From positions 1 to 41,261 of the forward strand of contig CAZLRZ010000004.1 of assembly GCA_964562165.1 (NCBI GenBank): 41,261 bases of DNA, written 5' to 3'. This document shows positions 7,558 through 41,051 of this stretch, piece by piece; the first letter of the stretch is position 1, and each line of letters starts with the position of its first letter. Below the pieces are notes generated by a model. It did not search any database. It was not told the origin of the DNA and saw only the letters and a program-made list of their open reading frames with translations. This stretch comes from an uncultured Candidatus Saccharibacteria bacterium. Its GTDB lineage: Bacteria > Patescibacteriota > Dojkabacteria > B142 > OLB20. Made by a program: the position numbers and the translations under genes.

Positions 7558-9060
7558 ATGTTAAACAATTGCTATACTTCAAAGTATAGTACACGCATGA
7601 GAAAACACAAAATTAAAACAAGTCTCTATCTATTTATCGCTTCGATATTCATATTCTTAGCTACTGCTGTTGCGATTATTATATCACAAGGGGCATCTGT
7701 TACAGAAAACGGTGTAAAAACCAATATGGGCGTGCTAAGAATAAACATTTACCCGGAAAATATTAACTATTCCTTATTTGTAGATGACGTTGCCGTAGAA
7801 AACATAATTAATAAAGGAGTTAATTTACCTGCCGGAGTTAAAGACATCCGTATTGAATCCGTAGGCATGAATTCCTGGAAAAAGAAAGTTGAAATTCAAG
7901 AAGGGATAGTAAAAGATATTTTTGTAAAACTATTCCCTACCGAATTAAAACTTGAACAAGTTACAAATACCAATGTTTCAAAAATGGTTTTTTCAGAGCT
8001 AGGAGATTATATTTTTTATACTGTAGAAACAAATCCTATTACCACCGAAAACGGAATTTGGAGATTACAGATAGAAAATAATAATTTGTTCATTTTTAAC
8101 AACAATCAAAATCTCATAAAATTTGCTGAACTAAATGAAGAATTGGTTCAAATTTTAAATGACAAAGAGGTAAAACTCATTCCAAGCCCAGACAATAACA
8201 AAATGCTAGTGATTTCACCAACAAATAAAAAGGCTCTATTACTCAATAATGCATTAGGCAATGAATCATTAAAAACGGTTGATATGGTAAGTGTTTTAGG
8301 GTTTTACCCCAACAATATCGATTGGTTAAATGACTCAATCAGCTTGATTATCGAAGATAACACAACCCTATTTGAATATAATTTAACAAACAACAAAACT
8401 ACATTAATTAAATATAATCAAAAAGGACCGGTTATCTTTGGATATAATAAAACACAGTTAATTTGGTTTGATTCAATTAATAAAACCTTGAATCAATTTA
8501 AAAATGAGGCAAATCAAGAGATTATTTTTCCAAAAAGTATAGTTTTTAATGAAATATCAAACATTTTCATTCCGGACAATTCTTCTAGGTATGCCCTAAT
8601 AAGCGATCAAAGCGAATATTATTTAGTTGATCTAGACAAAAAGACTGTTCAGAAAACTGGGCTAGACCCGAATTTAAATCTGCTAATAGACATTAGCGCC
8701 GATGCAACTACATTCCTGTTTAATAACTCAGGTAAAATTGTTTCGCTTGTTGCAAGAGAAAACTTAGCGCTTGGGAAAATTGATATAAATGTTTATAGTT
8801 CAAATGAAGCTTTCCTCGAAAACGATAAAATTGCCTTCACTCCAAAAGATTCAACGGTTTTAATATATTCCGATTTACTAAAAACAATTCAATCCTCTGA
8901 TCAGGATGGCCTAAACAAAAACTTAATTATAAACAACATTAATATTGTACCCTACTTTAATACCGATTCAAGGCTTGAAAACCTATACCTATTGTTAAAT
9001 GATGGTCAGGAGGAGGTTTCGAATGCAAACATTTACAAGATTAACCTACTATTAGATTAA
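7558..9060 (+). CDS. Membrane-anchored hypothetical protein with a PEGA-like domain and an Asn-rich, probably beta-rich, C-terminal region
   Basis: TM helix LYLFIASIFIFLATAVAIII. The segment LRINIYPENINYSLFVDDV..LPAGVKDIRIE..GMNSWKKKVEIQEG resembles a PEGA domain. The start could instead be the ATG at 7597. It is divergent from the MreB-like gene. Confidence 0.6.
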   Translation: MLNNCYTSKYSTRMRKHKIKTSLYLFIASIFIFLATAVAIIISQGASVTENGVKTNMGVLRINIYPENINYSLFVDDVAVENIINKGVNLPAGVKDIRIESVGMNSWKKKVEIQEGIVKDIFVKLFPTELKLEQVTNTNVSKMVFSELGDYIFYTVETNPITTENGIWRLQIENNNLFIFNNNQNLIKFAELNEELVQILNDKEVKLIPSPDNNKMLVISPTNKKALLLNNALGNESLKTVDMVSVLGFYPNNIDWLNDSISLIIEDNTTLFEYNLTNNKTTLIKYNQKGPVIFGYNKTQLIWFDSINKTLNQFKNEANQEIIFPKSIVFNEISNIFIPDNSSRYALISDQSEYYLVDLDKKTVQKTGLDPNLNLLIDISADATTFLFNNSGKIVSLVARENLALGKIDINVYSSNEAFLENDKIAFTPKDSTVLIYSDLLKTIQSSDQDGLNKNLIINNINIVPYFNTDSRLENLYLLLNDGQEEVSNANIYKINLLLD

Positions 9061-9173: not shown

Positions 9174-9776
9174 TTAGTCTTTCGACATTCTCCCTTTAAC
9201 ACCGCTAAAATGAGCAGATAGTACATCATAATCAAACAATTCTTGATTGCCAAACCAAAGTGAGATTTCTTCTTGTGCTTCGGCAACTTCGCCAGATGCA
9301 TGGATGATATTGTAAAGGGGTCTTTTTTGTTCGTTTGCAAATTCAACACTATCCGTGCCAAAATCTCCCCTAATTGTGCCGGGCACTGCAATTGCTGGTA
9401 TTGTGTCACCTGCTAATTTTCTGCCGGTAAGAACTGCATTTGGTCCTTCAAAAACCATTGCCATTACTGGACCAAAGTTCAAATATTCAATTAACCACTT
9501 CTTTACCAATTTACCGATATCCATAGCATTATTCGTCCCTAGTATTAGGGTTGCATCTAGGCCTCGTTCCTGGTATTCCTTTAAAGTTCTCTCACCAACC
9601 TTTGTGAACCATTTTTCTGAAACTGGATAATGGCTATCACCCATTTCCTCTGTGGATTGGATGAATTCCATTGCTACGATTTTCAATCCTACTCTTTCAA
9701 AACGAGCTATTACTTCTCCAATTAATCCCCTGGCTACTCCATCATGTTTGACAATTATTAGTGTTTTTTCGGACAT
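9174..9776 (-). CDS. ndk: Nucleoside diphosphate kinase, long form with internal insertion
   Basis: TLIIVKHDGVARGLIGEVIARFERVGLKIVAM, GTIRGDFG, and active-site context NIIHASG. It is about 50 aa longer than the ~140-150 aa canonical NDK. Confidence 0.85.
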   Translation of the reverse strand: MSEKTLIIVKHDGVARGLIGEVIARFERVGLKIVAMEFIQSTEEMGDSHYPVSEKWFTKVGERTLKEYQERGLDATLILGTNNAMDIGKLVKKWLIEYLNFGPVMAMVFEGPNAVLTGRKLAGDTIPAIAVPGTIRGDFGTDSVEFANEQKRPLYNIIHASGEVAEAQEEISLWFGNQELFDYDVLSAHFSGVKGRMSKD

Positions 9777-9803
9777 TTTTAAAAATTTAAAAAAGTATTT
9801 TAA

Positions 9804-10406
9804 TTACAGCATTCCAATATAATCGACCCTATTGTATTCGCCTAAATATTTAAATTTATCGCCAAACCAATGCGCGATTTCTCTTTGGGCTTCTTCTACA
9901 GAATCTGATCTATGAACTAAAGTTTTAAAAACGATTCGGCCAGATTTAACGGCCATTTTAGGAGTGTCAAAACCAAAATCCCCCCTCACTGAACCAATAT
10001 CAGCGGTTAGTGGATTGGTTTCTCCCATTAACTTAGCAATAATTTCTACTGCATTATTACCTTCCCAGACACTGATAACAACAGGGCCTTCGGTTAAATA
10101 ATCAACTAGGGATTTGTATACGATTTTACCGATTGCTAATCTATCTGTTGTGCCCATATCTTCCATCATTGCTTTTTCATCACCTTTGTAATTAGCATAT
10201 GTTTTTTCGCCCATTTTTATCATCCATTCATCAGTCCCGGGATAATTACCTTTAGCTTGTTCCTTTGTGGCCCAAATCATTCTCGTGGCAACAACTTTAA
10301 GCCCCATTCTTTCTACTCTTTTAAAAATATCCCCTATTAAACCTCGCTTAACGCCATCAGGCTTAATCATTAAGAAGGTATGCTCTATTGTGTCTATTTT
10401 CTTCAT
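9804..10406 (-). CDS. ndk: Nucleoside diphosphate kinase, second tandem long-form paralog
   Basis: TFLMIKPDGVKRGLIGDIFKRVERMGLKVVA, GSVRGDFG, LVHRSDS. I place the start at Met26 of the track ORF (ATG 10404-10406), which forms an ATGA overlap with the tmk stop. The longer ORF would overlap tmk by 79 nt. Confidence 0.85.
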   Translation of the reverse strand: MKKIDTIEHTFLMIKPDGVKRGLIGDIFKRVERMGLKVVATRMIWATKEQAKGNYPGTDEWMIKMGEKTYANYKGDEKAMMEDMGTTDRLAIGKIVYKSLVDYLTEGPVVISVWEGNNAVEIIAKLMGETNPLTADIGSVRGDFGFDTPKMAVKSGRIVFKTLVHRSDSVEEAQREIAHWFGDKFKYLGEYNRVDYIGML

Positions 10407-11023
10407 ATTATTTTTGTTAATTTTTTTAAAATATTTTTTTTGACTTCTTCGATTGTGCCATTTCCATCGACAATTATCCATTCACCAAAGATTTTATTTT
10501 TTGCTAAATATAAAAAGCCATCACGAATTTTATATTGTTTTTTGAGATCTCTTTCGTTTATATCTAAACCCTTCTCATGACCTTCTTCTTTTGATTTTCG
10601 ACTTAATGCAACTTCGGGCAAAACGTCTATAAAGATATTATAATCGGGCTTACTAATTTTAAAAGTATCAGCAAATTTTAAAGCATCGTCAATATCAACT
10701 GATTTGTTCACTAAACAGTTATAAACTATGTTTGTTGTAAAATACCCATCACAGAGGAAAAAGCTCGAATTAGACCCCTTAGACGCCTTAATTTTGTCTT
10801 GAAACATAAGTTGATCAAGTCCAAAACTAACAAACAATGCTTCGGGGGATAGTTTAATTTCTTCTAACAAAAAAGGTTTAATATAATTTTTATACAATAC
10901 ACCTTGGTGATCAGGGAATTCCATACTCTCTATTTGAAGATTGAGAGTTTTTAAGTATTCAAAAAGCTCTAAACGCTGGCGTCCTTTTCCAGCCCCATCA
11001 ATGCCCTCAAGTACTAAAAACAT
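10403..11023 (-). CDS. tmk: Thymidylate kinase
   Basis: P-loop FLVLEGIDGAGKG at the N-terminus; length and layout fit dTMP kinase. Confidence 0.85.
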   Translation of the reverse strand: MFLVLEGIDGAGKGRQRLELFEYLKTLNLQIESMEFPDHQGVLYKNYIKPFLLEEIKLSPEALFVSFGLDQLMFQDKIKASKGSNSSFFLCDGYFTTNIVYNCLVNKSVDIDDALKFADTFKISKPDYNIFIDVLPEVALSRKSKEEGHEKGLDINERDLKKQYKIRDGFLYLAKNKIFGEWIIVDGNGTIEEVKKNILKKLTKII

Positions 11024-11071: not shown

Positions 11072-11959
11072 TTATTCAAAACTTTCTTTAAAATTCATTA
11101 TATATGAACAGTAATAATTACATTTACCTGATTGATAATGTTTGAGGCCATCTTCATTAACTATTACAATTTGGCTGCCTCCTAAATCTGTTCTAAATGT
11201 TTGAACCTTTGCCCTTCCTAAATTATTAACAACTTCAGTATTTGGATGCCCATAGCTATTTTTGCCTACTGAAATAAAAGCAATTTCCGGCCTAGTTTTT
11301 TGAAGAAAGTATTCGCTAGTACTATTTTTGCTTCCATGGTGGCTGACTTTTAAAAAATCAATATCACCGATTGCATCCACTAATGAATCTTCTTCTGAAA
11401 AAGAGCTATCGCCAGCAAAAAAGAACATTTTAGAATCATACTCCAAACTAAAAGCTAGCGATGAACTATTGGAGTTCTCTTCTTTAACCGATGAAGAAAG
11501 TGGCCTATACCAACGAATGGAAACACAACATCCGATTTGTGTTATTTGACTAGAATAAGGAGAAAATGTGTTTCGGTTCGCAAACAAAGACTGCCAAATC
11601 AAATTATAATCTGGGTCCTGCTTATTAAAAGCAATGTTTTTAACTTGATATTGATTCAATAACTGCGGAAATGAGCCAATATGATCTGTATCAAAATGAC
11701 TTACTATTACCAAATCAATTAAATTCGTTCCAAGTGGGAAGTATTTGGCTAACTCATCAAGGGATTTTGGATTTGAACCACCAGTATCAATTAGAATAAA
11801 TTTTTTATCAGGAGTTTTTATTAATGTAGCATCACCCTGCCCTACATCTAATACAACCAAATTAAAAGAAGAATCATTTTGGACGAAAACAATTTCATAA
11901 ACCAATAAAATTATTAACATTAGCAAAACAAATAAGTTTTTCTTTTTCACTTTAATCAA
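11072..11959 (-). CDS. comEC: ComEC/Rec2 C-terminal metallo-beta-lactamase domain as a separate ORF
   Basis: VLDVGQGDATLI, VIVSHFDTDHIGS, KVSHHGSKNS motifs, with an N-terminal TM helix. The track start codon is TTG (11957-11959). Alternatives are GTG at 11950 and ATG at 11920. It overlaps the upstream comEC ORF by 8 nt in a different frame. Confidence 0.75.
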   Translation of the reverse strand: MIKVKKKNLFVLLMLIILLVYEIVFVQNDSSFNLVVLDVGQGDATLIKTPDKKFILIDTGGSNPKSLDELAKYFPLGTNLIDLVIVSHFDTDHIGSFPQLLNQYQVKNIAFNKQDPDYNLIWQSLFANRNTFSPYSSQITQIGCCVSIRWYRPLSSSVKEENSNSSSLAFSLEYDSKMFFFAGDSSFSEEDSLVDAIGDIDFLKVSHHGSKNSTSEYFLQKTRPEIAFISVGKNSYGHPNTEVVNNLGRAKVQTFRTDLGGSQIVIVNEDGLKHYQSGKCNYYCSYIMNFKESFE

Positions 11960-13154
11960 AAGTTAACTGTGAAGAAAAATTAATTATTAAAAGGATTAGT
12001 TGCAATAATGCATCGGTGAATCTGACAAATATTAAGGAGAAAGGCATATTAAGCATTGAAAAGATCACCGAAACAAAGCCGAACACCATTGTAACGGGGA
12101 TTATGGGCACCACCAATACATTTGCTATTAGGCCCTTTACAGTAACTGTGCTGCCTAAATACATAGAAACAGGTAAAACCCCTATCGAACAGAAGAATGT
12201 AACGAGCGCACTTGAAAGTATCCAGTTCTTTATAACAATATCTAATTTTGAATAAATGGCATCTAACACAATTAAGCCAAGGGTAGCTAAAAACGAGAAC
12301 TTGAGGCTAAAACTAAAAACCGAAACCGGTGAAATTAACAAAATTATTAATAAGGCCATCCCCCAAATGTTTAAATACGAAGCCCTTCTACCCACTAACA
12401 ACGCTATGGACCTAAATACAAACATCAGTAAAGCGCGCAGGCATGGGATATTATCAAAACCTACAAGGCAATAAAAAACAAATAACACAAATACAATAAT
12501 TAGACTAAGTTTTTTCCTAGGCACAAAAAAGACCAGCAAGCTTAAAAACTCTGCCAGTAAATTAAGATTAAAACCCGAAATCGCGATAATATGCGAAGTA
12601 TTAGTTGTTTTTAGAGCCGCCTCTGTTTCTGCAGGGAAGGTAATGTCTGCGCCAATTAGGAGCCCTGATAAAAGGTTTGCCGATTGTCCATGGTAGTTTT
12701 GATAAATTTCTTCAAGTATTTTGTAATGAAAAGCGCTAATAAGAGCCAACGGTCCATAAGCTTTTTCTGAAATTATGATTTTAGGATTGCGAAAGATTCC
12801 ATAAATTTGTTGCGAATAAAAGTAATCATTAGCTATGTCTGCCCTTTTGAATTCGCCTGAAATAATTAGCTTATCCCCAATATTAAAATAGTTTTCTTTA
12901 AGATTGTTCGTCTTAATCAAGTAAATATTACTGGTCAAGGCCTTTATCTCGCGGACTTTAAAAGAAACAACTGTATTTTCGAACTTACAATATGAAATCA
13001 CTTCATAGATATTTGAATCCACAAATAAGGGCTGACTTTCGGGCGGATTAACTCGCGAAGCTCCTAAAAATAGGAAAAAAAGAATATATAAAATAACTGC
13101 AGAAAAGAAAAACAAGTATTTCTTAAGCCAGCCTTTAAACCTTTGACGTAACAT
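11952..13154 (-). CDS. comEC: ComEC/Rec2 N-terminal and polytopic competence (channel) domain
   Basis: 400 aa with an N-terminal TM helix, an OB-like segment and multiple TM helices (HIIAISGFNLNLL motif typical of the competence domain). comEA is directly upstream on the same strand (at 13166-13741). Confidence 0.8.
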   Translation of the reverse strand: MLRQRFKGWLKKYLFFFSAVILYILFFLFLGASRVNPPESQPLFVDSNIYEVISYCKFENTVVSFKVREIKALTSNIYLIKTNNLKENYFNIGDKLIISGEFKRADIANDYFYSQQIYGIFRNPKIIISEKAYGPLALISAFHYKILEEIYQNYHGQSANLLSGLLIGADITFPAETEAALKTTNTSHIIAISGFNLNLLAEFLSLLVFFVPRKKLSLIIVFVLFVFYCLVGFDNIPCLRALLMFVFRSIALLVGRRASYLNIWGMALLIILLISPVSVFSFSLKFSFLATLGLIVLDAIYSKLDIVIKNWILSSALVTFFCSIGVLPVSMYLGSTVTVKGLIANVLVVPIIPVTMVFGFVSVIFSMLNMPFSLIFVRFTDALLQLILLIINFSSQLTFD

Positions 13155-13165
13155 AGGAAGAAGAA

Positions 13166-13741
13166 CTATAAAATCGCTTTGGTTTTTAATTCATCAAGTG
13201 CGCTTTGCCTAATTCCTGTTTGGGCCTTTAGTTCTTCCCAACTTGAAAAAGGACGATTTTTAATGATTTTTTCTGCCGTTACTTTACCTATTCCCTTTAT
13301 ATCTTCTAGCTCTGAACTTGTGGCGGTATTTATTGAAAAGAATCCTGTACTCCCCTGCCAAGGCTCCAGGCCTAAATCTATTGACTTACCCTTTGGCGGA
13401 ATATAGATTTTCATTTCTGGGCTTACTTTTTTGGAAAGTGTAATAAATTGGTGCACATATGGAATGTCGGCATTTGGGGCATAACCACCTGCAAGCTCTA
13501 TTGCATTAAAGACCAATATTGGGCTTGAAACTTCAAACACTCCGGGGTTATTAACCTCACCTAAAACCTCAATAAAAAATGTGCTTGGAGTTACTGTTAC
13601 TTCACTAATTTGAGTGGTGATAATTTCATTTTTATTATCTGTGGCTGGTAATATACTTTGCAAATTGTTTGCATAAGTCAGCAAAAGGACTAGTGAAATA
13701 ATGATGGAGATGAAAATTATTGTGTTTTTATGTTTTTTCAT
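13166..13741 (-). CDS. comEA: DNA receptor ComEA (SLBB plus helix-hairpin-helix)
   Basis: N-terminal TM helix, SLBB-like VNNPGVFEV, and C-terminal INTATSSELEDIKGIGKVTAEKII HhH. Confidence 0.85.
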   Translation of the reverse strand: MKKHKNTIIFISIIISLVLLLTYANNLQSILPATDNKNEIITTQISEVTVTPSTFFIEVLGEVNNPGVFEVSSPILVFNAIELAGGYAPNADIPYVHQFITLSKKVSPEMKIYIPPKGKSIDLGLEPWQGSTGFFSINTATSSELEDIKGIGKVTAEKIIKNRPFSSWEELKAQTGIRQSALDELKTKAIL

Positions 13742-25824: not shown

Positions 25825-27246
25825 TTATGCCAAAGGATCGTCATCCTCGCCTAATAATTCTTTTAGACGTTCCATTTCTGGTGATACGCCCATTTCTTTT
25901 GCTAGTTCTTTTTTGCTCTTTGGAGTCTCTTCGACAACTGGAGTCTCTTCGATGACTGGAGTCTCTTCGACGACTGGGGTCTCTTCGACTACTTTTTCCT
26001 TTGGAGCCTTTTCGACTTCCTCGACCTTTTCTACTTTCTCAACTTTTTCAGATTTTTCGACTTTTTCGGCTTTTGGTTCTGGTTTAACTTCTTCAGCTTC
26101 GGCCTTTGGAGCTCTACTGACTCGTTTTAAACTTAGACCTAAGTGTCTGTCGTCTCTTGAAATTGAGATGATTTCTAATTCGTATTCTTTGTTGGCTTCG
26201 ACAATCTTACTTGGGTCTTTGACCAATCTATCTGAAAGTTCAGAGATATGAATCAATCCATTTAATCCTTCTTCGATTCTGACAAATGCACCGTAGTCAA
26301 CGATTTTGGTGATTTCTCCCATTACTCTTTGACCGACTTTGTATTTTTTAACAATAGCCTCCCATGGATCGGGCATTAATCTCTTGATTGAATATGCGAT
26401 TCTCTTACCGCCATCATCGATTCCGATGATTTCGACTTTTACTGGATCGCCAATCTTGAAGAAGTCTGCAGGATTAGTGACTTTATCCCATGAAATTTCG
26501 GATAAGTGGACCAAACCTTCGAGACCTTTTGCATTAACGAATAATCCAAATGGTGCAATACCTGTGATTTCACCCTCTAATTTATCTCCAACCTTAACGT
26601 GCTTAAGCGTTTCGGCTCGTTTATCCATATCTTCTTTACCTGTGTCTTTCTTCTTTTCTGAGAAGATGACTCTATTTTTTTCTCTATCAATTTCAATGAC
26701 TTTAACTTCAAGCTCTTTACCGATCAATTCGGCCAATTTACCTTGTAGTTCTTTGTCTGCATCTTGTTTGCTTGCATAACCACCTAATGGGTAAATTCTG
26801 GAATTATCTAGTTGAGAGGTTGGAACAAAGCCTCTTAAGCCACCGCCGATGTTTACAATAACACCACCGGTATTAGCTTCGATGACTTCGACTTTAACAT
26901 TTAAGTCATTTTCAAGAGCATTGTTAAGCTCGAACCACTTTCTAGCGGTTCCGGTCCTTCTAATAGAAAGTTCTATTTGCCCTAAAGGATTTTCTCCTTT
27001 TAAAACATAAACTAAAATTTCGTCTCCTACTTGATAGTTTAGTTTTTCTCCGGTTAACTTCATTTCTTTACCGGAAACTATACCTTCGGCACGGCCTCCA
27101 ATATCGCAAATGATTTCTCCTTTTGAGATTGAGAGAACTATACCTTTAATGATTTGTCCCCTTTTGAAAGTCTTGGGGAAGACTTCTAAAGATGCTAAAT
27201 ACTCTGAAATAGGATCTGTAGAATTAATTTGGGCTTTATTAGCCAT
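25825..27246 (-). CDS. rpsA: 30S ribosomal protein S1 with a repetitive acidic C-terminal tail
   Basis: Multiple S1 OB repeats (e.g. GEITGIAPFGLFVNAKGLEGLVHLSEIS, GEITKIVDYGAFVRIEEGLNGLIHISELS). The tail is KVEKSEKVEKVEKVEEVEK..VVEETPVVEETPVIEETPVVEETP. Confidence 0.9.
   Translation of the reverse strand: MANKAQINSTDPISEYLASLEVFPKTFKRGQIIKGIVLSISKGEIICDIGGRAEGIVSGKEMKLTGEKLNYQVGDEILVYVLKGENPLGQIELSIRRTGTARKWFELNNALENDLNVKVEVIEANTGGVIVNIGGGLRGFVPTSQLDNSRIYPLGGYASKQDADKELQGKLAELIGKELEVKVIEIDREKNRVIFSEKKKDTGKEDMDKRAETLKHVKVGDKLEGEITGIAPFGLFVNAKGLEGLVHLSEISWDKVTNPADFFKIGDPVKVEIIGIDDGGKRIAYSIKRLMPDPWEAIVKKYKVGQRVMGEITKIVDYGAFVRIEEGLNGLIHISELSDRLVKDPSKIVEANKEYELEIISISRDDRHLGLSLKRVSRAPKAEAEEVKPEPKAEKVEKSEKVEKVEKVEEVEKAPKEKVVEETPVVEETPVIEETPVVEETPKSKKELAKEMGVSPEMERLKELLGEDDDPLA
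25921..25992. repeat. 18-nt in-frame tandem repeat x4 within the rpsA tail
   Basis: TGGAGTCTCTTCGACAAC, TGGAGTCTCTTCGATGAC, TGGAGTCTCTTCGACGAC, TGGGGTCTCTTCGACTAC. These encode (V/I)EETPV units on the minus strand. Confidence 0.9.
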
Positions 27247-27317: not shown

Positions 27318-27347
27318 ATTATATCAAAAAATGTATGCATCCGTCAA
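27318..27347 (-). promoter_or_regulatory. Promoter candidate for rpsA (TTGACG, 18 nt, TATAAT)
   Basis: On the minus strand, TTGACG is at 27342-27347 and TATAAT at 27318-27323. Confidence 0.45.
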
Positions 27348-27349
27348 AA

Positions 27350-28402
27350 TTACATTACTGGATTTACCGGACCAATTGAATCGGTGGCCGCTACAGGATT
27401 TGCATCGGAAATCGGCGCTACTGGAGGAGCCTGATTGACTGGGCTAGCCTGACTTGTGGATTCTGAAGGACCATCATCTAGGTTGATCCCCATATCTTGC
27501 AATTGAGAGATCAGATTCGGTGATGATGATGCTTTAACTTCCTCAACTGGTTCAGGTGTAACAGGTTCCATTGGTTTTATAGGTGCTACCGCCTCTTCTA
27601 AGGGTTTTTCAATTACAGGACTAACTTTTACCGGAGCAACTTCAACTGCTTCGGGTTTAACTGTTTCCGGCTGAACTGGTGCAGGTTCTACAGGTGTAAC
27701 TTCAACAGTCACAGCTGGCTTGGCTTGTGCTTCTACAACGTTAGCTAGCCATTCAGGGAGTTCAGGTTCTGTTTTTGTACCATCTTTAATTTCGCCTATA
27801 TCATCCATAATTGTCGCAACGACTGGTTTATTAAGGGTATCAACAGGTTCTGTAGCTGCCTGTGTATCAGTTGGGACTTCTGTTTCTGAGATTAAACCCT
27901 TAGATTGTTGAGCCAACTTTTCTGTTTCAGTTGCGTTATTGTTTAGATTTTCAAGATCTATTTCTTTTATTGTGTTTGTATCCAAATCTATCAAGCTACT
28001 CAACGATAATAATGTATTGTATTTGATTATTGGATTCATAGCATCAAGATATCTGGCAATTTCCTTACGATCTTCTGCAGGTAAAACCGGTAAGAGGTTG
28101 TCATAGAACATCTTACCAAAAGAATCTATTGATTCGGTAAGTAATTTAATCAACTCTTCTTCCCTTAATATTGCTTTTATATCTTCATCTACTGTTGCAT
28201 TATCAGGGTTTTCGAGAGACTGCATTAATGCATTTATTTTGTTTGGATCTATCTTTTTTTCGTTGAGATAATATTTTATTGTTTCCTCTATAAGTATAAA
28301 CAGCTTTGACATTAGGCTGCTATAAGTAGCAAAAGTTTCTTCATCATCTTTTGTTTGAAAGAGAATTGATATTATGTACGGATCGAGTAGATATTTTCTC
28401 AT
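27350..28402 (-). CDS. Hypothetical protein: helical N-terminal half and Pro/Val/Glu-rich low-complexity C-terminal half
   Basis: 350-aa ORF, the last gene of the unknown operon. No TM helix or signal peptide is visible. The tail reads PAVTVEVTPVEPAPVQPETVKPEAVEVAPVKVSPVIEKP. I recognise no family. Confidence 0.75.
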   Translation of the reverse strand: MRKYLLDPYIISILFQTKDDEETFATYSSLMSKLFILIEETIKYYLNEKKIDPNKINALMQSLENPDNATVDEDIKAILREEELIKLLTESIDSFGKMFYDNLLPVLPAEDRKEIARYLDAMNPIIKYNTLLSLSSLIDLDTNTIKEIDLENLNNNATETEKLAQQSKGLISETEVPTDTQAATEPVDTLNKPVVATIMDDIGEIKDGTKTEPELPEWLANVVEAQAKPAVTVEVTPVEPAPVQPETVKPEAVEVAPVKVSPVIEKPLEEAVAPIKPMEPVTPEPVEEVKASSSPNLISQLQDMGINLDDGPSESTSQASPVNQAPPVAPISDANPVAATDSIGPVNPVM

Positions 28403-28424
28403 TTGTATTTTAATTAATATTTAA

Positions 28425-29744
28425 TTAAGAAATTGTTGCGCTTTGTGCAGCAGCCGCCGCTGCATTTAGGTTCTTTGCAAATCCAAGGCCGGTTGAAAGC
28501 TCAATTTGCTTTTTAATCGTATCAAACTGCTCTTGTGATAATATTCTACCAGTTTTAGCTGCTTCGCCCCTTGTTGCGATTTCAATAAGGAACCCTAAAT
28601 AATCAGCTTTACTGTTTGCGTTTTTGGATAACTTTGTTTTGGCTGCAACCTCAGCCTTTTGCAGAGCTGCATTAGATGTACTCTTTAAAGCATCGATCGC
28701 TCTCCAACTCTTGAGTCCCCCTCTTTCCTGATAATTTGCGATCCCAGCTAAAATACCAACAGACCCAAGTGCAGCACCACCCACCAGCATACCCAAGGTG
28801 ACATTGCTTATTAACGCTCCAGCCCCCACTCCAGCACCAGTAAACAACAAGGCTACTAATAATGCTGGACCCCCATACTTAATCAAATTCCCAACTTTTT
28901 TACCAAAAATTTCAAGGTTTGTAACTTCCTCTGATTTTGCAGTTGCGACATCTGCCGCTGCAGAAGCTTCTGCATATCTAGTTTGGGCATCGCTAAGATC
29001 TTTCGCTCTTTGAATCATTTCAATATATATTCCCTTCATCGGAGGAGACATCCCATCTAAGGCATGACTAATAACGCTAGTTGCTAAATTAGCCCCAGTA
29101 GTTCTAAAAATCTCTCTTCTGTCTTCTATTTTTCCAAATTCAATATTTAAACGATCTTTAACCTCTAAATTTTGTATAGCGTCAATTTTCGTCCTTAAAG
29201 CATCAAGGCTTTCAATTGTTCCTTTATTATAATCTGCCAATAAATCGTCTACCTCTTTTTGTACGCTAGTATTAATCCTTTCTTGTATTTTGTTTTTTAG
29301 ATCTGCATTAATATTTGTGCCAGCCGCTAATTCAGTATTCCATATAGCCCTAGTATAGATAGGACTGCTCAAATATTTATCTGCATATGCTTCAATAGCG
29401 GCGGTTTCTATCTCTACCTGCTTGGCAGGATGATTTGTAATAATATCGTTAATATCCCCAGCAATAGGATTTTCAGCTAATCTTCTAGCTTCCATTTTAG
29501 AAGCAACTGTACGTCCATCAGGTTCTAAAAGTGGCCTTAATCCATCTAATACAACCACTGCATCATTTTTTATTGTTTCTACTTCAGTGACATTTTTGGC
29601 ACCCTCAAATTTAGCATTAATTACTGCTATATTTAAGCTAGCTTTTAAAGCTTCAACAGGATTATCTTTTACTGAGGCTTCTATTGGCCCCTTAGCTAAT
29701 TCTTGAAATTTTACTGCAGCTTGATGTCCTGGAGTTGTTGACAT
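28425..29744 (-). CDS. Hypothetical large protein B (439 aa) with a C-terminal glycine-zipper TM hairpin; paralogous at the C-terminus to 30048-31916
   Basis: Helical N-terminal region, then KYGGPALLVALLFTGAGVGAGALISNVTLGMLVGGAALGSVGILAGIANY, GGLKSWRAIDA, and AKTGRILSQEQFD. The start is 2 nt after the stop of the 94-aa ORF. Confidence 0.8.
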   Translation of the reverse strand: MSTTPGHQAAVKFQELAKGPIEASVKDNPVEALKASLNIAVINAKFEGAKNVTEVETIKNDAVVVLDGLRPLLEPDGRTVASKMEARRLAENPIAGDINDIITNHPAKQVEIETAAIEAYADKYLSSPIYTRAIWNTELAAGTNINADLKNKIQERINTSVQKEVDDLLADYNKGTIESLDALRTKIDAIQNLEVKDRLNIEFGKIEDRREIFRTTGANLATSVISHALDGMSPPMKGIYIEMIQRAKDLSDAQTRYAEASAAADVATAKSEEVTNLEIFGKKVGNLIKYGGPALLVALLFTGAGVGAGALISNVTLGMLVGGAALGSVGILAGIANYQERGGLKSWRAIDALKSTSNAALQKAEVAAKTKLSKNANSKADYLGFLIEIATRGEAAKTGRILSQEQFDTIKKQIELSTGLGFAKNLNAAAAAAQSATIS

Positions 29745-29746
29745 AG

Positions 29747-30031
29747 TTAATCGTTAATAGCTTTAGGATCTTTAGAAATTAAATCCAGCTTATCATCGTC
29801 AAGTTTTTCGTTTTCAACTAGTTCATCAAGTGCCATTACTAATTCTAAAATATCGTGATCCGACATTTTTTTTGAATATCTATAAATATACACAAATTCC
29901 CTTAACGCAGAATTTCTAATTCTATATCCAGGAATAATTAATTTAAGCTCCTGCGCTGCTTTACCTGCTGCAACATCTTTAGCCTTATTATTATCTAGGA
30001 ACTTTGTTAAATCGTTGTTTGAATTTGTCAT
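29747..30031 (-). CDS. Hypothetical small protein b (94 aa), paralog of 31913-32176
   Basis: It shares the core IIPGYRIRN..KKMSDHDILELVMALDELVEN with IVGPRVRN..EKMSHEDIVQKILDYDEYVEK of the 87-aa ORF. It has an acidic C-terminus and no TM helix. Confidence 0.75.
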   Translation of the reverse strand: MTNSNNDLTKFLDNNKAKDVAAGKAAQELKLIIPGYRIRNSALREFVYIYRYSKKMSDHDILELVMALDELVENEKLDDDKLDLISKDPKAIND

Positions 30032-30047
30032 TGTACTTTCTTAATAT

Positions 30048-31916
30048 TTAAGCTATCGCTAAATTAAATAATCCCTTTGTTGGACGACCTGCACTCTCGG
30101 GACTATACCCGATTAAGCCATAAGCCCTTCTTAACATTTGGTCATATGCACGTTTATCAACTATTCTACCCGTTTTAGCAATTTGGGCTTGCACCGCCAT
30201 TTCTGCAATACTCCCTAAAGTTGCCTCTTGTGATGCAGCCAAATTGCCCTGCATAGCAAGTATTTTTGGCTCTACAGCAGCCAACCCGGCAATAGCCCTA
30301 GCTTTTTCAGCCTCTATGTTTCTCCACTCTTTTAAACCACCACCAAAGGCGTATTTACCACCACCGATAAGGCCTGGAACACCAACACCAACCAGTAATG
30401 GTATTAATTTATATGCACCATTAATATTACCCGTCAGCGCAATTAACCCACCTATACCAAGGCCTAAAAAAGCAGGTCCAAAATATTTACTGATAAGGCC
30501 AGCCTTTTTCCAAAAAGCATTGAAGTCTTTAGCTTTAGCCTCTTTTTGAAGTGCAACACCTTCTGCTGCTACGGCTATACGATTGGCCTCATTTAATTTA
30601 GATTGATTAAGTAGTTTTTCTCTTTGAATACTTTTTGAGGGTTCTGGTAAGCCCTCAAGGGTTTTTTCGATGATTTGGTTAATTACTACTTCCCTCATGA
30701 CGGCACGATCTGATCTTTCTTTGTCAGACATTTTAGCTAGTTCTTCTGGTGTTTTATCTCTACCATAAAAGATGTCATATGGTATTTTATTTACATCTGT
30801 CCTATTCTGACCTGAAAGAAGAGTACCAAATCTTTCGCTGGTATCTTTAAAATCCCTTTTACTCGCCATTATTAGATCGAAGAATTCAGAACCTTCTTGA
30901 TAACCTAATTCCGCTGCTTCGATCTCCAACTCAGTCAATTCAATTTCACCCCTTGTAAATCTTTCAATTAATTTATCTGCTTCACTTCGGGATTCTTCTC
31001 TAATTGTGCTTCGAACTCGATTCGCTGTATCTTGATCAATCCTCCCTTTTGATACCATATTATTGATTGTTTTTTCTGCAGCATCCCTACTGCTAAACTT
31101 CAAATCTTGCACCATACCGCTTACAGCTGCATCCCTTATTCCTTTTTCATTACCTGGATCTTCCGTAATTAGAGCACTAAGGGAAGGACCATCATAGCCA
31201 TCAGGATTCACTGAATCAAAACCTTGCGAAATCCCTCTAGCTTTGTTAAGTCGTAAATTTGTTTTATCTGCTTCTGTTTGAAGTTCATCTGAATGTCTAC
31301 CTATAAAATCTTGAATAGCTTTTAACCTATCCGTGGTGCTTTCTTTACCCTTTAGCTCTGCTGCCAACCTTGCGACTTCTAAACTAAATTGGATGTTTCC
31401 TTTTGCTGATTCATTTAGTATTCCAAGTATACGTAAAGTATCTTCATCTAATTTATAGCTTCCAGCTTTTTCATCTATAACTGTACTATTTTCACTAGCT
31501 CTTTCACTTTGGGTATCTCCAATTTGGTTGTTTGATGAGACTACCGAATCATCTATGTTTCTAATAGATTCTGTTGATGGTGTATCATCGGTGGATATTT
31601 GAGCGAACTCTTTTACTGCCTGTAATTGATCCTGTGAGGCTTCGTTTGGTTTTGCAGCATCAAGGGTTGCAAGTTGTGCCATTCTATTATCATACAAATC
31701 TCTTTGACCCTTCGTCAAAGCCGTCTGATCAATTTTTCCCAAGTCTTCTATTGTCCCAGCCCTATTAATTGCAGCTGTCCTAATCAATTTTTCACCACCC
31801 ATCGGATCCATCGGATTCGGCACAGAAGCAATATCAACAACAGCGTCTATTACAGAAGTTTGCTGAGTATCTTTTTCCCTGCCTGAATTTCCAAGTTCTG
31901 GATTACCTGTGCTCAT
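30048..31916 (-). CDS. Hypothetical large protein A (622 aa) with a C-terminal glycine-zipper TM hairpin
   Basis: Long charged, helical N-terminal region, then KYFGPAFLGLGIGGLIALTGNINGAYKLIPLLVGVGVPGLIGGGKYAF, GGLKEWRNIEA, and AKTGRIVDKRAYD. Its ATG overlaps the stop of the 87-aa ORF (ATGA at 31913-31916). Confidence 0.8.
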   Translation of the reverse strand: MSTGNPELGNSGREKDTQQTSVIDAVVDIASVPNPMDPMGGEKLIRTAAINRAGTIEDLGKIDQTALTKGQRDLYDNRMAQLATLDAAKPNEASQDQLQAVKEFAQISTDDTPSTESIRNIDDSVVSSNNQIGDTQSERASENSTVIDEKAGSYKLDEDTLRILGILNESAKGNIQFSLEVARLAAELKGKESTTDRLKAIQDFIGRHSDELQTEADKTNLRLNKARGISQGFDSVNPDGYDGPSLSALITEDPGNEKGIRDAAVSGMVQDLKFSSRDAAEKTINNMVSKGRIDQDTANRVRSTIREESRSEADKLIERFTRGEIELTELEIEAAELGYQEGSEFFDLIMASKRDFKDTSERFGTLLSGQNRTDVNKIPYDIFYGRDKTPEELAKMSDKERSDRAVMREVVINQIIEKTLEGLPEPSKSIQREKLLNQSKLNEANRIAVAAEGVALQKEAKAKDFNAFWKKAGLISKYFGPAFLGLGIGGLIALTGNINGAYKLIPLLVGVGVPGLIGGGKYAFGGGLKEWRNIEAEKARAIAGLAAVEPKILAMQGNLAASQEATLGSIAEMAVQAQIAKTGRIVDKRAYDQMLRRAYGLIGYSPESAGRPTKGLFNLAIA

Positions 31917-32176
31917 TTATTTTTCCCCTTCGCTAAATTAATTTTCTCTTCCGTTACCAAACCCTTTTCTACATATTCATCATAATCAAGTATCTTTTGG
32001 ACAATATCTTCGTGACTCATTTTTTCATTTAAATATTTTTTAACTAGGTTTCGCCAGATAACATTCCTGACCCTTGGCCCCACAATTATTGTTGGATTTG
32101 GTTTTTTTATTCCTGCTAAATCCCCCTTCAGAATTGAAGAGAGTTGTTGTTGTGATGATAGATCAGAACTGGACAT
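31913..32176 (-). CDS. Hypothetical small protein a (87 aa)
   Basis: It is translationally coupled to the 622-aa ORF and is a paralog of the 94-aa ORF. Confidence 0.75.
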   Translation of the reverse strand: MSSSDLSSQQQLSSILKGDLAGIKKPNPTIIVGPRVRNVIWRNLVKKYLNEKMSHEDIVQKILDYDEYVEKGLVTEEKINLAKGKNK

Positions 32177-32259
32177 AGGTTATTTTAAAATTAGCAAATT
32201 ATAGACCCATTTAGCCTATATAATAGCTTTGCAGGAAACAAAAAAGAAGTCAAGAAATT

Positions 32260-32526
32260 TTACAAATTGATATCTTCATCCATATAACCCATTCTGCGTT
32301 CGATTTTTTTTCGAAGATATTCGATGAGATCAAGCATGCCTTTTTGGCTTTCTTCATCTAGAGAGAGCTTAAGAATGCCATCTTTGAATTTGTTTAGTGA
32401 ATCAAGAGCGACATAAAAATCGGTGCCAACTTCAAGGTTTGCCTCGGAATAGGTGTCATTTAAAGCCTTGCCTACTCTGGCAAGATGACTGATTCTTTCT
32501 TTTGTGGCTTCGTCGGGCTCGATCAT
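32260..32526 (-). CDS. Hypothetical small acidic helical protein (88 aa from ATG 32524-32526)
   Basis: The track ORF (to 32577) starts with the TTG of a TTGACA box. The first ATG gives MIEPDEATKERISHLARVGK... I recognise no family. Confidence 0.6.
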   Translation of the reverse strand: MIEPDEATKERISHLARVGKALNDTYSEANLEVGTDFYVALDSLNKFKDGILKLSLDEESQKGMLDLIEYLRKKIERRMGYMDEDINL

Positions 32527-32547
32527 TTTATTGAAGTAATATAAATA

Positions 32548-32577
32548 TAATATGGGGTATGAGGGGAATTTTGTCAA
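32548..32577 (-). promoter_or_regulatory. Promoter candidate for the unknown operon (TTGACA plus an AT-rich -10 region)
   Basis: On the minus strand, TTGACA is at 32572-32577, followed 17-19 nt later by CATATT/TATTAT. It lies just downstream of the 5S terminator. Confidence 0.35.
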
Positions 32578-32657: not shown

Positions 32658-32685
32658 AAAAAAAATCCCGACATTTCTGTCGGGA
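32658..32685 (-). terminator. Rho-independent terminator after 5S rRNA
   Basis: 8-bp stem TCCCGACA (32666-32673) / TGTCGGGA (32678-32685). On the minus strand it is followed by T8 (the A-run at 32658-32665). Confidence 0.85.
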
Positions 32686-32695
32686 CCTTTTTTAC

Positions 32696-32811
32696 TCTGG
32701 CGATTACCTATTTTCCCAATCCCTTTCGAAATAAGTATTTTCGGCGCTACAGCGTTTCACTTCTCTGTTCGGTATGGGAAGAGGTGGGGCCACTGCGCTA
32801 GAATCACCAGA
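32696..32811 (-). rRNA. rrf: 5S ribosomal RNA
   Basis: The reverse complement reads TCTGGTGATTCTAGCGCAGTGGCCCCACCTCTTCCCATACCGAACAGAGAAGTGAAACGCTGTAGCGCCGA...GGTAATCGCCAGA. This has the conserved CCGAAC loop and paired ends. Confidence 0.9.
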
Positions 32812-33007: not shown

Positions 33008-36050
<3,043 letters not shown>

Positions 36051-36119
36051 ACAAGTTTTTTACAAATTTGAGTAGCGCTAATTAAATTTCATTGAAAATT
36101 AACCGCGCTAAAAAAAAAT

Positions 36120-38346: not shown

Positions 38347-39036
38347 TTATTTGAATCTTAAAGTACTAATCATTATATCAAACTTTGATTCATTCCCATC
38401 ATAAGTATTGTTACTACCTATCAAATTAACAACAAATTCCTTTGATCCAACCTTCACATAACCCAGCTTGGTATAGCTTCCGGTCTGTAACTCATTATCT
38501 TTAAATTTTCCTTCAATTACTAGCCAACTGTTGCCATCAATGGATTGGCTAACCTGACTATAGCCCGGTTCTAATTGAGTAATATAGTCACTGTTCCATG
38601 CTGAAGCGCTTTGTAATTGAGAAATGCTTAATTTGCCGGCATATTCGGATGCTGCGGGCAATTGATTTGGATCTAAGCCCAAGGTTGCAGGTGAAAAATA
38701 TCTAAACCACCAGCCATTTGGTCTATAAACCGTATATGGCAAGAAACTCATAGTATCTAACAACTTCCAATCTGCTGGAGGAGTAACCTCTGCAATAGGA
38801 GTCGTTGTTACAATTGTAGTTGTTGGAGCAACTGTTTTTGTTACACTTGCTGTAGCTGTTGCGGTTGTATTTGGAGACGCAGTTACATCAACATCATTTT
38901 CTACAGGTGTTGGAGTAGGTTCGTTGATAACATTTACTTGATTTGGAGCTACTAATAAATAGTACATTAATCCAAAACCTAAAACGGCAACGACAATGAC
39001 TACCAAAATAGAAACAAGAGTATTTGCTTGCTTCAT
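38347..39036 (-). CDS. Membrane-anchored hypothetical protein with a Thr/Pro-rich linker and a small C-terminal domain
   Basis: TM helix LVSILVVIVVAVLGFGLMYYLL, linker TPTPV..TTATATASVTKTVAPTTTIVTTTP, then PPADWKLLD..WWFRYF..MISTLRFK. Confidence 0.75.
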   Translation of the reverse strand: MKQANTLVSILVVIVVAVLGFGLMYYLLVAPNQVNVINEPTPTPVENDVDVTASPNTTATATASVTKTVAPTTTIVTTTPIAEVTPPADWKLLDTMSFLPYTVYRPNGWWFRYFSPATLGLDPNQLPAASEYAGKLSISQLQSASAWNSDYITQLEPGYSQVSQSIDGNSWLVIEGKFKDNELQTGSYTKLGYVKVGSKEFVVNLIGSNNTYDGNESKFDIMISTLRFK

Positions 39037-39124: not shown

Positions 39125-39511
39125 TTAGGGGGTAGATTCTTGAATTGACAAATTTTTTGAGTTTAATAATTCTAACAATTGGGGATCTATTGAAGTTACA
39201 TCTACATTGCCCTGCCGCATCTCACGTAAGATTTGGGATAAATAGATGTCTAAATCTGAATTTGATTCACCATTTTTTATATGGTTTAATAACATTTTTT
39301 GGGTTTCAGGAACAATAGTAGTTTTTCCAGGATTTTGTAAATCTGCAAAGGTTTTATTTGCTTCTGCCATTTTAGCATCCAAATCTTTTGGTACATTTCC
39401 ATTTTCAATCTGTTCCAAATATAAATCTGCTGGATCTGCTGGATCTGCTGGATCTGTTGGATCTGTTGGATCTGTTGTAACTTCTAACTCTCGTTGGGGA
39501 TTTTCATTCAT
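39125..39511 (-). CDS. Hypothetical acidic protein with an N-terminal (DPT)3(DPA)3 repeat
   Basis: 128-aa ORF: MNENPQRELEVTTDPTDPTDPADPADPAD.. Confidence 0.65.
   Translation of the reverse strand: MNENPQRELEVTTDPTDPTDPADPADPADLYLEQIENGNVPKDLDAKMAEANKTFADLQNPGKTTIVPETQKMLLNHIKNGESNSDLDIYLSQILREMRQGNVDVTSIDPQLLELLNSKNLSIQESTP
39425..39478. repeat. 9-nt in-frame tandem repeat x6 (3 x ATCTGCTGG, 2 x ATCTGTTGG, 1 x ATCTGTTGT)
   Basis: Read directly from the sequence. It encodes the DPT/DPA repeats of the 128-aa ORF. Confidence 0.9.
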
Positions 39512-40187: not shown

Positions 40188-41051
40188 TTAATAAATAAAT
40201 TCAAAAGTTTTTAATGTTTCGAGCATATTATTACTAAAAGGCTCTCTAATACCAAGGGCAAAAACTAATTGGTCTTTTTTGGAAAGTATACCAAGAGCTT
40301 CAGCAGGCCCAAAGATACCACCATTATTGTCATTGCAGGTGTAGGTAACATCAACAGTAGCTTTATTCCATGTATAAGTACCCAGCTTTAGATATGAGTG
40401 CTTAACAGAATCTTTCCATTCATTTATAGAAGGAATACAGTCATGTGCCTGCAATTCCATCGCGGTAAGACTTTTTAGTGTATCTGAGCCAGCCAATTTA
40501 TAGCCAGGAGCTCTAATATAATAAGATTTGGCATTTGTTGCAATATCTCCTTCAAACACTTCAACTAAGATTCCTCCATTTCCTACCTCATAACTTGCAC
40601 GAACACTCATGCCTTCCGGATATCTAAAGTGAAATTCAGAAAGCAATCCTTTTTCTGGTTTAGCGCCATAAATATATGCAGTCCTACTATCGAAGACATT
40701 CCAATCAGGATGTGCAGAAAAATTTGAGATTGTTGGAGAAATAGTTGGTAAAGCCGTAGATGTTGTAACAGGTTCGTCTGTTGCCGTAATTGAAACCGTA
40801 TTAGTAACCTCAACATCATCTGTCGTGACAACAGTCGAAGTAGGTGTGACTTTAATTAAATTATCGTTATTTTGATCTTTAGGTAAAATTGCTATTAATA
40901 ATATGACCACCAGGAGTAAAAACAGTCCTACAATAATACCAATTATTAAAAGAGTATTATTCGTTTTGTTTGAAGGTGATTTTTGAACATCGGATGACAA
41001 AATATTTGTCGATTCTGATGGTTTATCGGGTAATATTTCCTGAGGATCCAT
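40188..41051 (-). CDS. Membrane-anchored hypothetical protein with a Thr/Val-rich linker and C-terminal domain (same architecture as 38347-39036)
   Basis: TM helix LLIIGIIVGLFLLLVVILLIAIL, linker TPTSTVVTTDDVEVTNTVSITATDEPVTTSTALPTISPT, then AHPDWNVFD..FHFRYP..LETLKTFEFIY. Confidence 0.75.
   Translation of the reverse strand: MDPQEILPDKPSESTNILSSDVQKSPSNKTNNTLLIIGIIVGLFLLLVVILLIAILPKDQNNDNLIKVTPTSTVVTTDDVEVTNTVSITATDEPVTTSTALPTISPTISNFSAHPDWNVFDSRTAYIYGAKPEKGLLSEFHFRYPEGMSVRASYEVGNGGILVEVFEGDIATNAKSYYIRAPGYKLAGSDTLKSLTAMELQAHDCIPSINEWKDSVKHSYLKLGTYTWNKATVDVTYTCNDNNGGIFGPAEALGILSKKDQLVFALGIREPFSNNMLETLKTFEFIY

Follow-up and report, generated by a model that had tools for sequence, protein, structure and literature searches.

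The window analysed here comprises 41,261 nucleotides (nt; positions 1 to 41,261, forward strand) of contig CAZLRZ010000004.1 (GenBank assembly GCA_964562165.1) of an uncultured Candidatus Saccharibacteria bacterium. Between the ribosomal RNA (rRNA) genes and rpsA it contains a block of six minus-strand open reading frames (ORFs), designated below, from the rRNA side, g1, s1, b1, s2, b2, and g6 (Table 1). The coordinates and sizes of these ORFs, their common orientation and their tight spacing, reported in an earlier note made from the sequence alone, were confirmed; the intergenic distances are, in order, 83, -4 (an overlap), 16, 2, and 22 nt. The absence of recognizable domains claimed in the same note was borne out as well, as none of the six proteins had a significant match in Pfam, NCBIfam, PHROGs, or PADLOC (in the latter, the best E-value was at least 0.002, and only for g1), and no N-terminal hydrophobic segment of the signal peptide kind was found in any of them. 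However, the genes are not six unrelated unknowns but, through a paralogy missed in the note, a duplicated two-gene module (s1-b1 and s2-b2) plus g6, and the main property of the locus, which the earlier reader could not see, emerges from sequence comparison with relatives: b1, s2, b2, and g6 appear to be a hypervariable cassette exchanged by recombination.

The modular structure is seen at the level of both genes of a pair. First, s1 and s2 are paralogous (38% identity, E-value 1e-8). Second, b1 and b2 are paralogous across at least the last ~330 residues (BLASTP E-value 3e-14). Genes two and three and genes four and five are a tandem duplication of one module, in which a gene for a small protein of ~90 amino acids (aa), s, is followed by a gene for a large helical protein, b. 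Each s gene overlaps the following b gene or precedes it by at most 16 nt, and each is predicted to be translationally coupled to its large gene. In all seven loci compared, s1 is basic (pI 9.3-9.8), whereas s2 is acidic (pI 4.6-6.2).

One plan is shared by 15 b proteins from nine loci: a helical N-terminal region of variable length, partly low-complexity or repeat-bearing; a helical core that is conserved and carries motifs like Y-x-x-G-E-I and L-P-E-P-x-K-x-I; a hydrophobic, Gly/Ala-rich hairpin of ~50 aa, flanked by lysine or arginine (K/R), with 9-17 glycines, often in GxGxGxG runs; and a tail of 45-137 residues (generally ~100 aa, as in b1 of the window). The earlier note had named the two large proteins as the only carriers of transmembrane (TM) segments. 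Their hairpins are indeed the sole hydrophobic stretches among the six proteins, and the hairpins of b proteins, all of them K/R-flanked, are picked up by the Kyte-Doolittle scale; on the Hessa scale, however, they are marginal, the b2 hairpin scoring -0.26/+1.49 kcal and b1 having no 19-mer below 2.5, against scores of -7 to +1 for the other membrane proteins in the window. As the hairpins are weaker than the ordinary TM segments of the same window, the label of TM segment should be taken cautiously.

Relatives of the locus are designated by L numbers. Two close relatives were found by an rpsA scan of representative genomes, one of which, L003 (rpsA 86% identical), is labelled as an uncultured Candidatus Saccharibacteria. 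The common gene order is LOG-methyltransferase(-), 23S rRNA, 5S rRNA, g1, s, b, s, b, g6, rpsA, clpC, and the order 23S-5S-g1-(s-b)x1-2-g6-rpsA-clpC was seen in at least nine Saccharibacteria contigs. Complete two-module loci are found in L003, L071, L083/L084, L088, and L089, and partial ones in L001, L002, L070, and L072. Only one s-b module, followed by g6, is found in L077, L091, and L092, so that s, b, and g6 make up the minimal set and the duplication is specific to the subclade of the window. Hence the comparison of gene neighborhoods proposed in the earlier note showed the genes to be syntenic in relatives, and the lack of synteny that it had named as evidence against a common unit was not seen. 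The block is present at one site in every sampled member of the clade. Artefactual ORFs are ruled out by conservation in more than ten contigs and by purifying selection on the hairpin.

Outside these relatives the proteins are rare. A HMMER scan of 1.84 billion representative proteins with a profile of the b1/b2 C-terminal part yielded nine proteins only, several of them on the L088 and L089 contigs. With b1 as the query, a word-indexed search yielded nothing but a 99% identical copy, and the same kind of search with a nine-sequence C-terminal profile gave only three proteins, probably because glycine-rich words swamped the pre-filter. Twenty orthologues from relatives had no match in Pfam, profile searches of PDB sequences with five locus alignments (that of g6 included) gave nothing meaningful, and no relatives were found by tblastn in 50,697 phage and 72,556 plasmid records. 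Literature searches on Saccharibacteria and Patescibacteria found no description of the locus. Thus, the homology and structure searches suggested in the earlier note were run, and no ordinary housekeeping function was assigned by the domain searches; judging from these comparisons, the content of the locus is new, no component belonging to any described family. Genes without annotation are common in CPR (candidate phyla radiation) genomes, where about half of the genes of episymbiotic lineages, including Saccharibacteria, have no assigned function, which tempers the surprise.

In BLASTP comparisons the b proteins form two groups without cross-matches, namely type X (the window, L088, and L089) and type Y (L003, L002, L070, L071, L072, and L083), with distinct b1 and b2 orthology groups inside each type. 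The alignment of X and Y profiles by hhalign is collinear over the core, hairpin, and tail (probability 96%, E-value 2e-9 to 6e-9), and the b protein of the single-module locus L091 matches the X and Y hidden Markov models alike. On these grounds all b proteins belong to one superfamily with two deep sequence types. Y-type b1 proteins contain K/R-rich tandem repeats of ~37 aa, with weak, below-cut-off matches to the Pfam ALTTAQ repeat. The copy number of these repeats differs between near-identical strains (L003 5961-7286 and L070 2368-3885). In L092, the b protein (9630-10592) contains approximately ten tandem copies of PEVTATEAEAPESS.

The distribution of the two types does not follow the relationships of the genomes. 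In the blastn comparison of the window with L003, the sequences are 91% identical through 23S rRNA, 5S rRNA, g1, and s1 to position ~31926; then no alignment is found for 4.6 kb, and identity resumes at 89% from position ~27329, 83 nt upstream of rpsA. This island, which comprises b1, s2, b2, and most of g6, has sharp edges, and nowhere else in the ~21 kb compared does the alignment fail. At the protein level, identity is 92% for g1, 64% for s1, and 86% for rpsA, while it falls to 24% for s2 and 27% for g6, and b1 and b2 of the window have no BLASTP match to b1 and b2 of L003. Yet b2 of the window is 34% identical to b2 of L088 (P0003; E-value 1.5e-52). The same situation recurs in a second pair of sisters, L071 and L088 (rpsA 96%, g1 99%), which carry a Y and an X cassette, respectively, and whose b1, s2, and b2 are 23, 24, and 21% identical, that is, at the level of noise; in contrast, L088 and the more distant L089 (rpsA 81%) are both of type X, with identities of 41% for b2 and 51% for s2. 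Since the window (X) and L003 (Y) are also sisters of opposite types, there are two independent pairs of sisters whose types conflict with the rpsA/g1 tree.

Other genes of the block fall on either side of this divide. The s2 protein co-varies with the cassette type (46-51% identity within type X, 24-35% across types), whereas s1 follows the species tree (62-72% among close relatives). In g6, the N-terminal domain follows the cassette type (in which the window is 56% identical to L088 and 32% to L003), whereas the last 60 residues follow the species tree (77% between L071 and L088 vs. 23% between the window and L088), and the L071/L088 DNA alignment restarts 160 nt before the g6 stop codon. 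By these comparisons g6 is a mosaic gene, and b1, s2, b2, and the g6 N-domain are inherited jointly as a cassette. Because s2, b2, and the g6 N-domain co-vary, they are better described as co-adapted allele sets than as products of independent drift.

Table 1. Position of the six-gene block, its parts and its neighbors in the window, and of the additional ORF found in relatives (contig coordinates of the respective loci).
Feature	Position	Strand	Remarks
23S rRNA	33008-36052		upstream of block
5S rRNA	32695-32811		upstream of block
5S terminator hairpin	32666-32685		
Promoter-like TTGACA-17-CATATT	32549..32577	-	10/12 match; after 5S terminator, before g1
g1 open frame, longer version	32260-32577	-	105 aa from TTG at 32577
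g1	32260-32526	-	88 aa from ATG at 32526
37-nt intergenic element TTGACTTCTTTTTTGTTTCCTGCAAAGCTATTATATA	32217..32253	-	in 83-nt g1-s1 spacer
s1	31913-32176	-	87 aa, basic, pI 9.4; stop overlaps b1 start by 4 nt
Hypervariable replacement island	27329..31926	.	b1, s2, b2, most of g6
b1	30048-31916	-	622 aa, helical
b1 Gly/Ala-rich hairpin	30351..30482	-	aa 479-522; 16 Gly in 50 residues; K/R flanks
s2	29747-30031	-	94 aa, acidic, pI 5.1; 2 nt upstream of b2
b2	28425-29744	-	439 aa, b1 paralogue
b2 Gly/Ala-rich hairpin	28731..28874	-	aa 291-338; holds GAGVGAGA motif
g6	27350-28402	-	350 aa, acidic, pI 4.2
Promoter-like TTGACG-18-TATAAT	27347..27318	-	rpsA promoter-like site
rpsA	25825-27246		downstream of block
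Extra 5S-g1 ORF (relatives)	L071 8519-9082; L083 7232-7939; L089 8360-8977; L091 8282-8995; L092 8342-8908		

The simplest account of this pattern is that homologous recombination in the conserved flanks swaps whole co-adapted cassettes among Saccharibacteria lineages. It is supported by the presence of the competence genes comEC (400 aa) and comEA (191 aa) in the window (11952-13741, minus strand), 13 kb from the cassette, and by the natural competence demonstrated in Saccharibacteria (PMC10633639). Differential loss from an ancestor with both types would be less parsimonious, as none of the nine genomes carries both. A foreign origin, for which the earlier note had proposed a check of composition, is not supported, as block and host do not differ in GC content in any genome compared: in the window the block has 0.30-0.39, as do the flanks, and block and flanks agree in all seven genomes, which range from 0.31 to 0.46. 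A prophage or mobile-element remnant was rejected given this native GC content and the lack of tblastn matches to phages and plasmids or of PHROGs matches.

Recombination-swapped cassettes at fixed chromosomal sites are known from pathogens, for example, the S-layer cassette of Clostridioides difficile and the capsule loci of pneumococci. The island shares with them conserved flanks, deep types that are mutually unalignable, discordance with the core tree, and mosaic breakpoints in boundary genes; with its fixed site, conserved flanks, discordant deep types, and mosaic breakpoints it has the features by which a recombination-swapped allelic cassette would be recognized. The kind of locus is therefore already known, and it is its content that is new. 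There are also differences. The S-layer and capsule cassettes encode secreted surface structures with export signals, whereas the island proteins have no signal peptide and are unrelated to them, and hairpins in the bacterium's own membrane would expose only a few loop residues.

Selection on the block was estimated by the Nei-Gojobori method from the pairwise comparison of L070 with L003, in which the flanks are 98.3% identical, the first ~200 codons of b1 are unalignable, and the remaining cassette is 86% identical. The dN/dS ratio was 0 for g1, 0.01 for s1, 0.16 for s2, and 0.53 for b1 overall; within b1, it was 0.6-0.8 in the N-terminal half and 0.05-0.3 in the hairpin and tail. Purifying selection thus acts on the hairpin and tail, and the N-terminal halves are almost free to change. 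A strain 99.7% identical to the window, L001 (Logan SRR29243425), differs from it in b1 (30848-31603) by four nonsynonymous and no synonymous changes, and elsewhere by one synonymous change in s2 and seven changes in the 5S-g1 spacer, with none in g1, s1, and b2. Positive selection was not accepted on the basis of the four changes in b1, which are too few (p ~0.3 under a 3:1 expectation).

In contrast to the cassette, g1 is a separate, strongly conserved family that is independent of the block. The acidic g1 protein, whose AlphaFold2 (AF2) model is a three-helix bundle (pLDDT 86, pTM 0.77), retrieved only generic three-helix bundles (BAG, MIT) in a Foldseek search, with a best E-value of 0.15. 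The family comprises 74 clusters and extends beyond the block: in Dojkabacteria (L080/L081), g1 is immediately followed by rpsA-clpC, the block being absent there, and in three more distant genomes (L085, L086, and L087; g1 at 8001-83xx) it is located just downstream of ftsW-secA. Hence the place given to g1 in the six-gene unit of the earlier note needs revision, as g1 occurs elsewhere without the block. In other lineages the distance between g1 and s is only 4-29 nt, and co-transcription of g1 with the block is therefore predicted to differ by lineage. Some members of the g1 family carry the JGI label "predicted DNA-binding protein". Many relatives have, between 5S rRNA and g1, an extra poorly conserved ORF of 187-237 aa that the window lacks; it appears to be a second small variable spot beside the cassette.

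The g1-s1 spacer contains an element of 37 nt, TTGACTTCTTTTTTGTTTCCTGCAAAGCTATTATATA, which occurs once in the window and is invariant, except for one R position, across the window and seven further loci (eight sequences). It is better conserved than the neighboring genes, the surrounding coding DNA being 79-91% identical. Its TTGACT and TATTAT boxes are 22 nt apart, which is non-canonical; the element is probably an internal promoter or operator for s1-g6, and alternatively could be a leader element.

The architecture of g6 comprises three parts. A conserved N-terminal domain of ~135 aa (residues ~1-135, 27998-28402) is followed by a disordered P/E/V/T-rich linker of 0-250 aa across relatives and by the C-terminal motif NLISQLQDMGINLDD (27473-27517), conserved in the alignment as QLxx(M/L)GI(D/N)L(D/N)D.

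As to function, the reading that we prefer, and hold to be possible rather than probable, is that the locus encodes a co-adapted complex, confined to the clade and seated in the cell's own membrane, whose cassette is swapped by homologous recombination, the complex probably acting at the interface with a host, phage, or competitor. Proteins b1 and b2 would be placed in the cytoplasmic membrane via the glycine-zipper-like hairpin; the K/R residues on both sides of the latter imply an N-in/C-in topology, with the variable helical N-domains and the conserved tails facing the cytoplasm. Oligomerization could occur via the GxGxGxG faces, as suggested by the fact that the hairpin is a conserved part of the b proteins. 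Similar Gly-rich two-helix hairpins are found in glycine-zipper proteins of the Mic10 type and in glycine-zipper pore-forming toxins, with which the b proteins share motifs like GAGVGAGA and GLGVGGGVG; however, the b proteins exceed them 5-10 times in size, possess N-domains that are long and helical as well as a conserved tail, and match none of the Pfam glycine-zipper families. The s proteins might bind the nascent b partner in a holding or assembly role, the type-specific g6 N-domain might dock on the cassette proteins, and the species-conserved C-terminal peptide of g6 might tie the assembly to a conserved cell component. That deep types persist and are exchanged suggests selection by an outside agent, such as a host cell, a phage, or a competing strain.

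Several points weigh against this membrane complex. The hairpins are marginally hydrophobic, several b proteins having no 19-mer below 2.5 kcal on the Hessa scale, so that constitutive insertion into the cell's own membrane is uncertain. A dedicated partner of b1 would be expected to vary with it, which s1 does not. Variable domains located in the cytoplasm make an external selective agent harder to explain. The AF2 model of b2, built from a four-sequence alignment, is all-helical and of low confidence (pLDDT 52). The choice of g1, a three-helix bundle of the peptide-binding type, as the component that the g6 peptide would bind is pure conjecture on our part. In the cultivated Southlakia epibionticum, other genes lie between the 5S rRNA and S1 genes and the block is missing from this position; for this reason the Tn-seq and structure-annotation data on that species are not transferable. 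More generally, the homology searches gave no pointer to a function. Finally, no dN/dS window in the pairwise comparisons exceeded 1 (the highest was 0.84), so relaxed constraint alone could explain the divergence.

This last point, together with the fact that no evidence of secretion was found, makes relaxed constraint a live rival: the block may encode a lineage-specific membrane scaffold of structural or housekeeping nature, under low constraint, with near-neutral drift of the N-terminal halves, its exchange being background recombination among competent relatives. The fixed position among housekeeping genes in every sampled clade member, the native GC content, the confinement of purifying selection to the hairpin and tail, the changes in repeat copy number and the low-complexity segments (including those in the b protein of L092), and the non-significant excess of nonsynonymous changes in b1 of the near-identical strain are all consistent with it. 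However, drift would not be expected to produce, in two independent pairs of sisters, types at odds with the rpsA/g1 tree, to leave a sharp-edged island as the sole unalignable stretch in the ~21 kb compared between the window and L003, or to make s2, b2, and the g6 N-domain change type together; moreover, other Saccharibacteria lack the block, as do Dojkabacteria. We therefore consider the scaffold somewhat unlikely.

Another explanation is that the b proteins leave the cell: each s would keep its b soluble until a specialized system, for example, the type IV secretion system (T4SS) of Saccharibacteria, secretes b, which would insert at the contact site into the membrane of the host bacterium, much like chlamydial Inc proteins or type III translocators; the cassette would then determine host specificity in an arms race. 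The lack of a signal peptide in all six proteins, hairpins less hydrophobic than the ordinary TM segments of the same genome, small genes coupled upstream of each hairpin gene, hypervariability of whole proteins combined with cassette swapping, and the requirement of a T4SS for epibiotic growth of S. epibionticum (PMC10633639) favor such export. Against it, the proteins have no identified secretion signal and are not homologous to translocators, Inc proteins, or chaperone families, the K/R residues on both sides of the hairpin suit ordinary insertion into the cell's own membrane, s1 is basic and varies independently of b1, and the cultivated epibiont with an essential T4SS lacks the block. Secretion of this kind is, in our opinion, unlikely. 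Equally doubtful is the related proposal that the cassette is a determinant of host specificity (or of self/non-self recognition), that exported b proteins, held soluble by s, enter the host membrane with their hairpins at the attachment site as an anchor, conduit, or pore, and that lineages change their partner range by exchanging entire cassettes via natural transformation.

The order of genes, small-hairpin-small-hairpin-hydrophilic acidic protein, resembles that of translocon operons. With type III translocon operons (class II chaperone, SctE, SctB, and tip protein) and chlamydial Inc proteins, the island shares helical or coiled proteins whose hairpin is bilobed and weakly hydrophobic, directly adjoining small genes upstream, a terminal hydrophilic acidic protein, lineage specificity, and fast evolution. 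However, there is no sequence or profile similarity, the hairpin of the island proteins is located near the C-terminus, and the s proteins have ~85 aa, one of them basic, without any tetratricopeptide repeat (TPR) signal. Neither SctE/SctB homology nor a TPR class II chaperone was found in Pfam or PDB searches, and no type III secretion apparatus is encoded in the 41-kb window; we know of no type III secretion system in Saccharibacteria.

The weakest explanation, which we regard as very improbable, is a conflict module in which the b proteins are glycine-zipper pore formers (inter-strain toxins or abortive-infection effectors) and the s proteins their antidotes or inhibitors: the hairpins do resemble those of membrane-depolarizing toxins, each b has a paired small gene, s2 co-varies with b2, and the locus is hypervariable, but neither toxin nor immunity families of Pfam nor PADLOC or PHROGs models were matched, phage and plasmid records contained no relatives, the conserved C-terminal hairpin and variable N-terminus are the reverse of the polarity of polymorphic toxins, each small gene is upstream of its b gene, s1 being conserved irrespective of b1, and the block, without mobile-element genes, shows no presence/absence polymorphism, being always at the same site in all sampled clade members, which does not fit anti-phage defense. 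Tripartite alpha-pore-forming toxins (AhlB/SmhB, ClyA family) likewise consist of adjacent paralogous all-helical proteins with a hydrophobic hairpin, but lack sequence similarity to b. The likeness of the b2 model to AhlB/SmhB in Foldseek (E-value 7-10, TM-score ~0.1, from a model of pLDDT 52) is meaningless.

To our knowledge, it is largely unknown how ultrasmall episymbiotic bacteria recognize, attach to, and exploit their hosts. With a new superfamily that has dedicated partners, a constant chromosomal location, a module in duplicate, and deep types at odds with the core tree, the locus is a good target for episymbiont biology, as it behaves like the swappable antigen and specificity cassettes of pathogens. 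If its site of action is indeed the contact with a host, phage, or competitor, the locus would provide a concrete candidate for a specificity determinant, and one amenable to genetics; natural transformation occurs in Saccharibacteria, and the conserved flanks (g1/s1 and rpsA) could be used as ready-made recombination arms. Even if it is only a fast-drifting scaffold, it would remain a clean example of co-adapted gene sets swapped as a unit.

The TTGACA box, the 5S terminator, and the promoter-like site of rpsA reported in the earlier note are all present. The boxes are only suggestive, as the number of promoter-like sites in the region (13) is not above that in shuffled sequences (18.2). The statement that every flanking gene is readily named proved too strong: the window does contain named genes such as clpC, radA, rho, leuS, comEA, comEC, mreB, and ndk, but four further ORFs of 128-500 aa (38347-39036, 39125-39511, 40188-41051 on the minus strand, and 7558-9060 on the plus strand) had no Pfam match. 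The ORFs at 40188-41051 and 7558-9060 start with a strongly hydrophobic N-terminal segment. No 16S rRNA was found by Rfam in the 41-kb window, the genes next upstream being protein-coding and tRNA genes; as 16S rRNA is missing near 23S and 5S rRNA, the rRNA operon appears to be split, with an unlinked 16S rRNA gene, in the genomes of the window and L003. Two tandem paralogues of nucleoside diphosphate kinase (9174-9776 and 9804-10481, minus strand) are both N-terminally extended, the Pfam NDK match beginning only at residue ~94-118.

Ribosomal protein S1 has a long, low-complexity, E/K/P/V-rich C-terminal extension (25825-26150) with EETPVV and VEKVEK repeats; the length of S1 with this extension varies among relatives (430-498 aa), and the extension terminates in a conserved peptide, KELAKEMGVSPEMERLKELLG, common to L002, L003, and L071. 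The C-terminus of g1 (32260-32300) reads RRMGYMDEDINL, g6 has QDMGINLDD near its C-terminus, and the S1 tail contains EMGVSPEM; this recurrent MG[YIV] / (D)INL pattern in the three sequences may be either a coincidence or a shared short linear motif.

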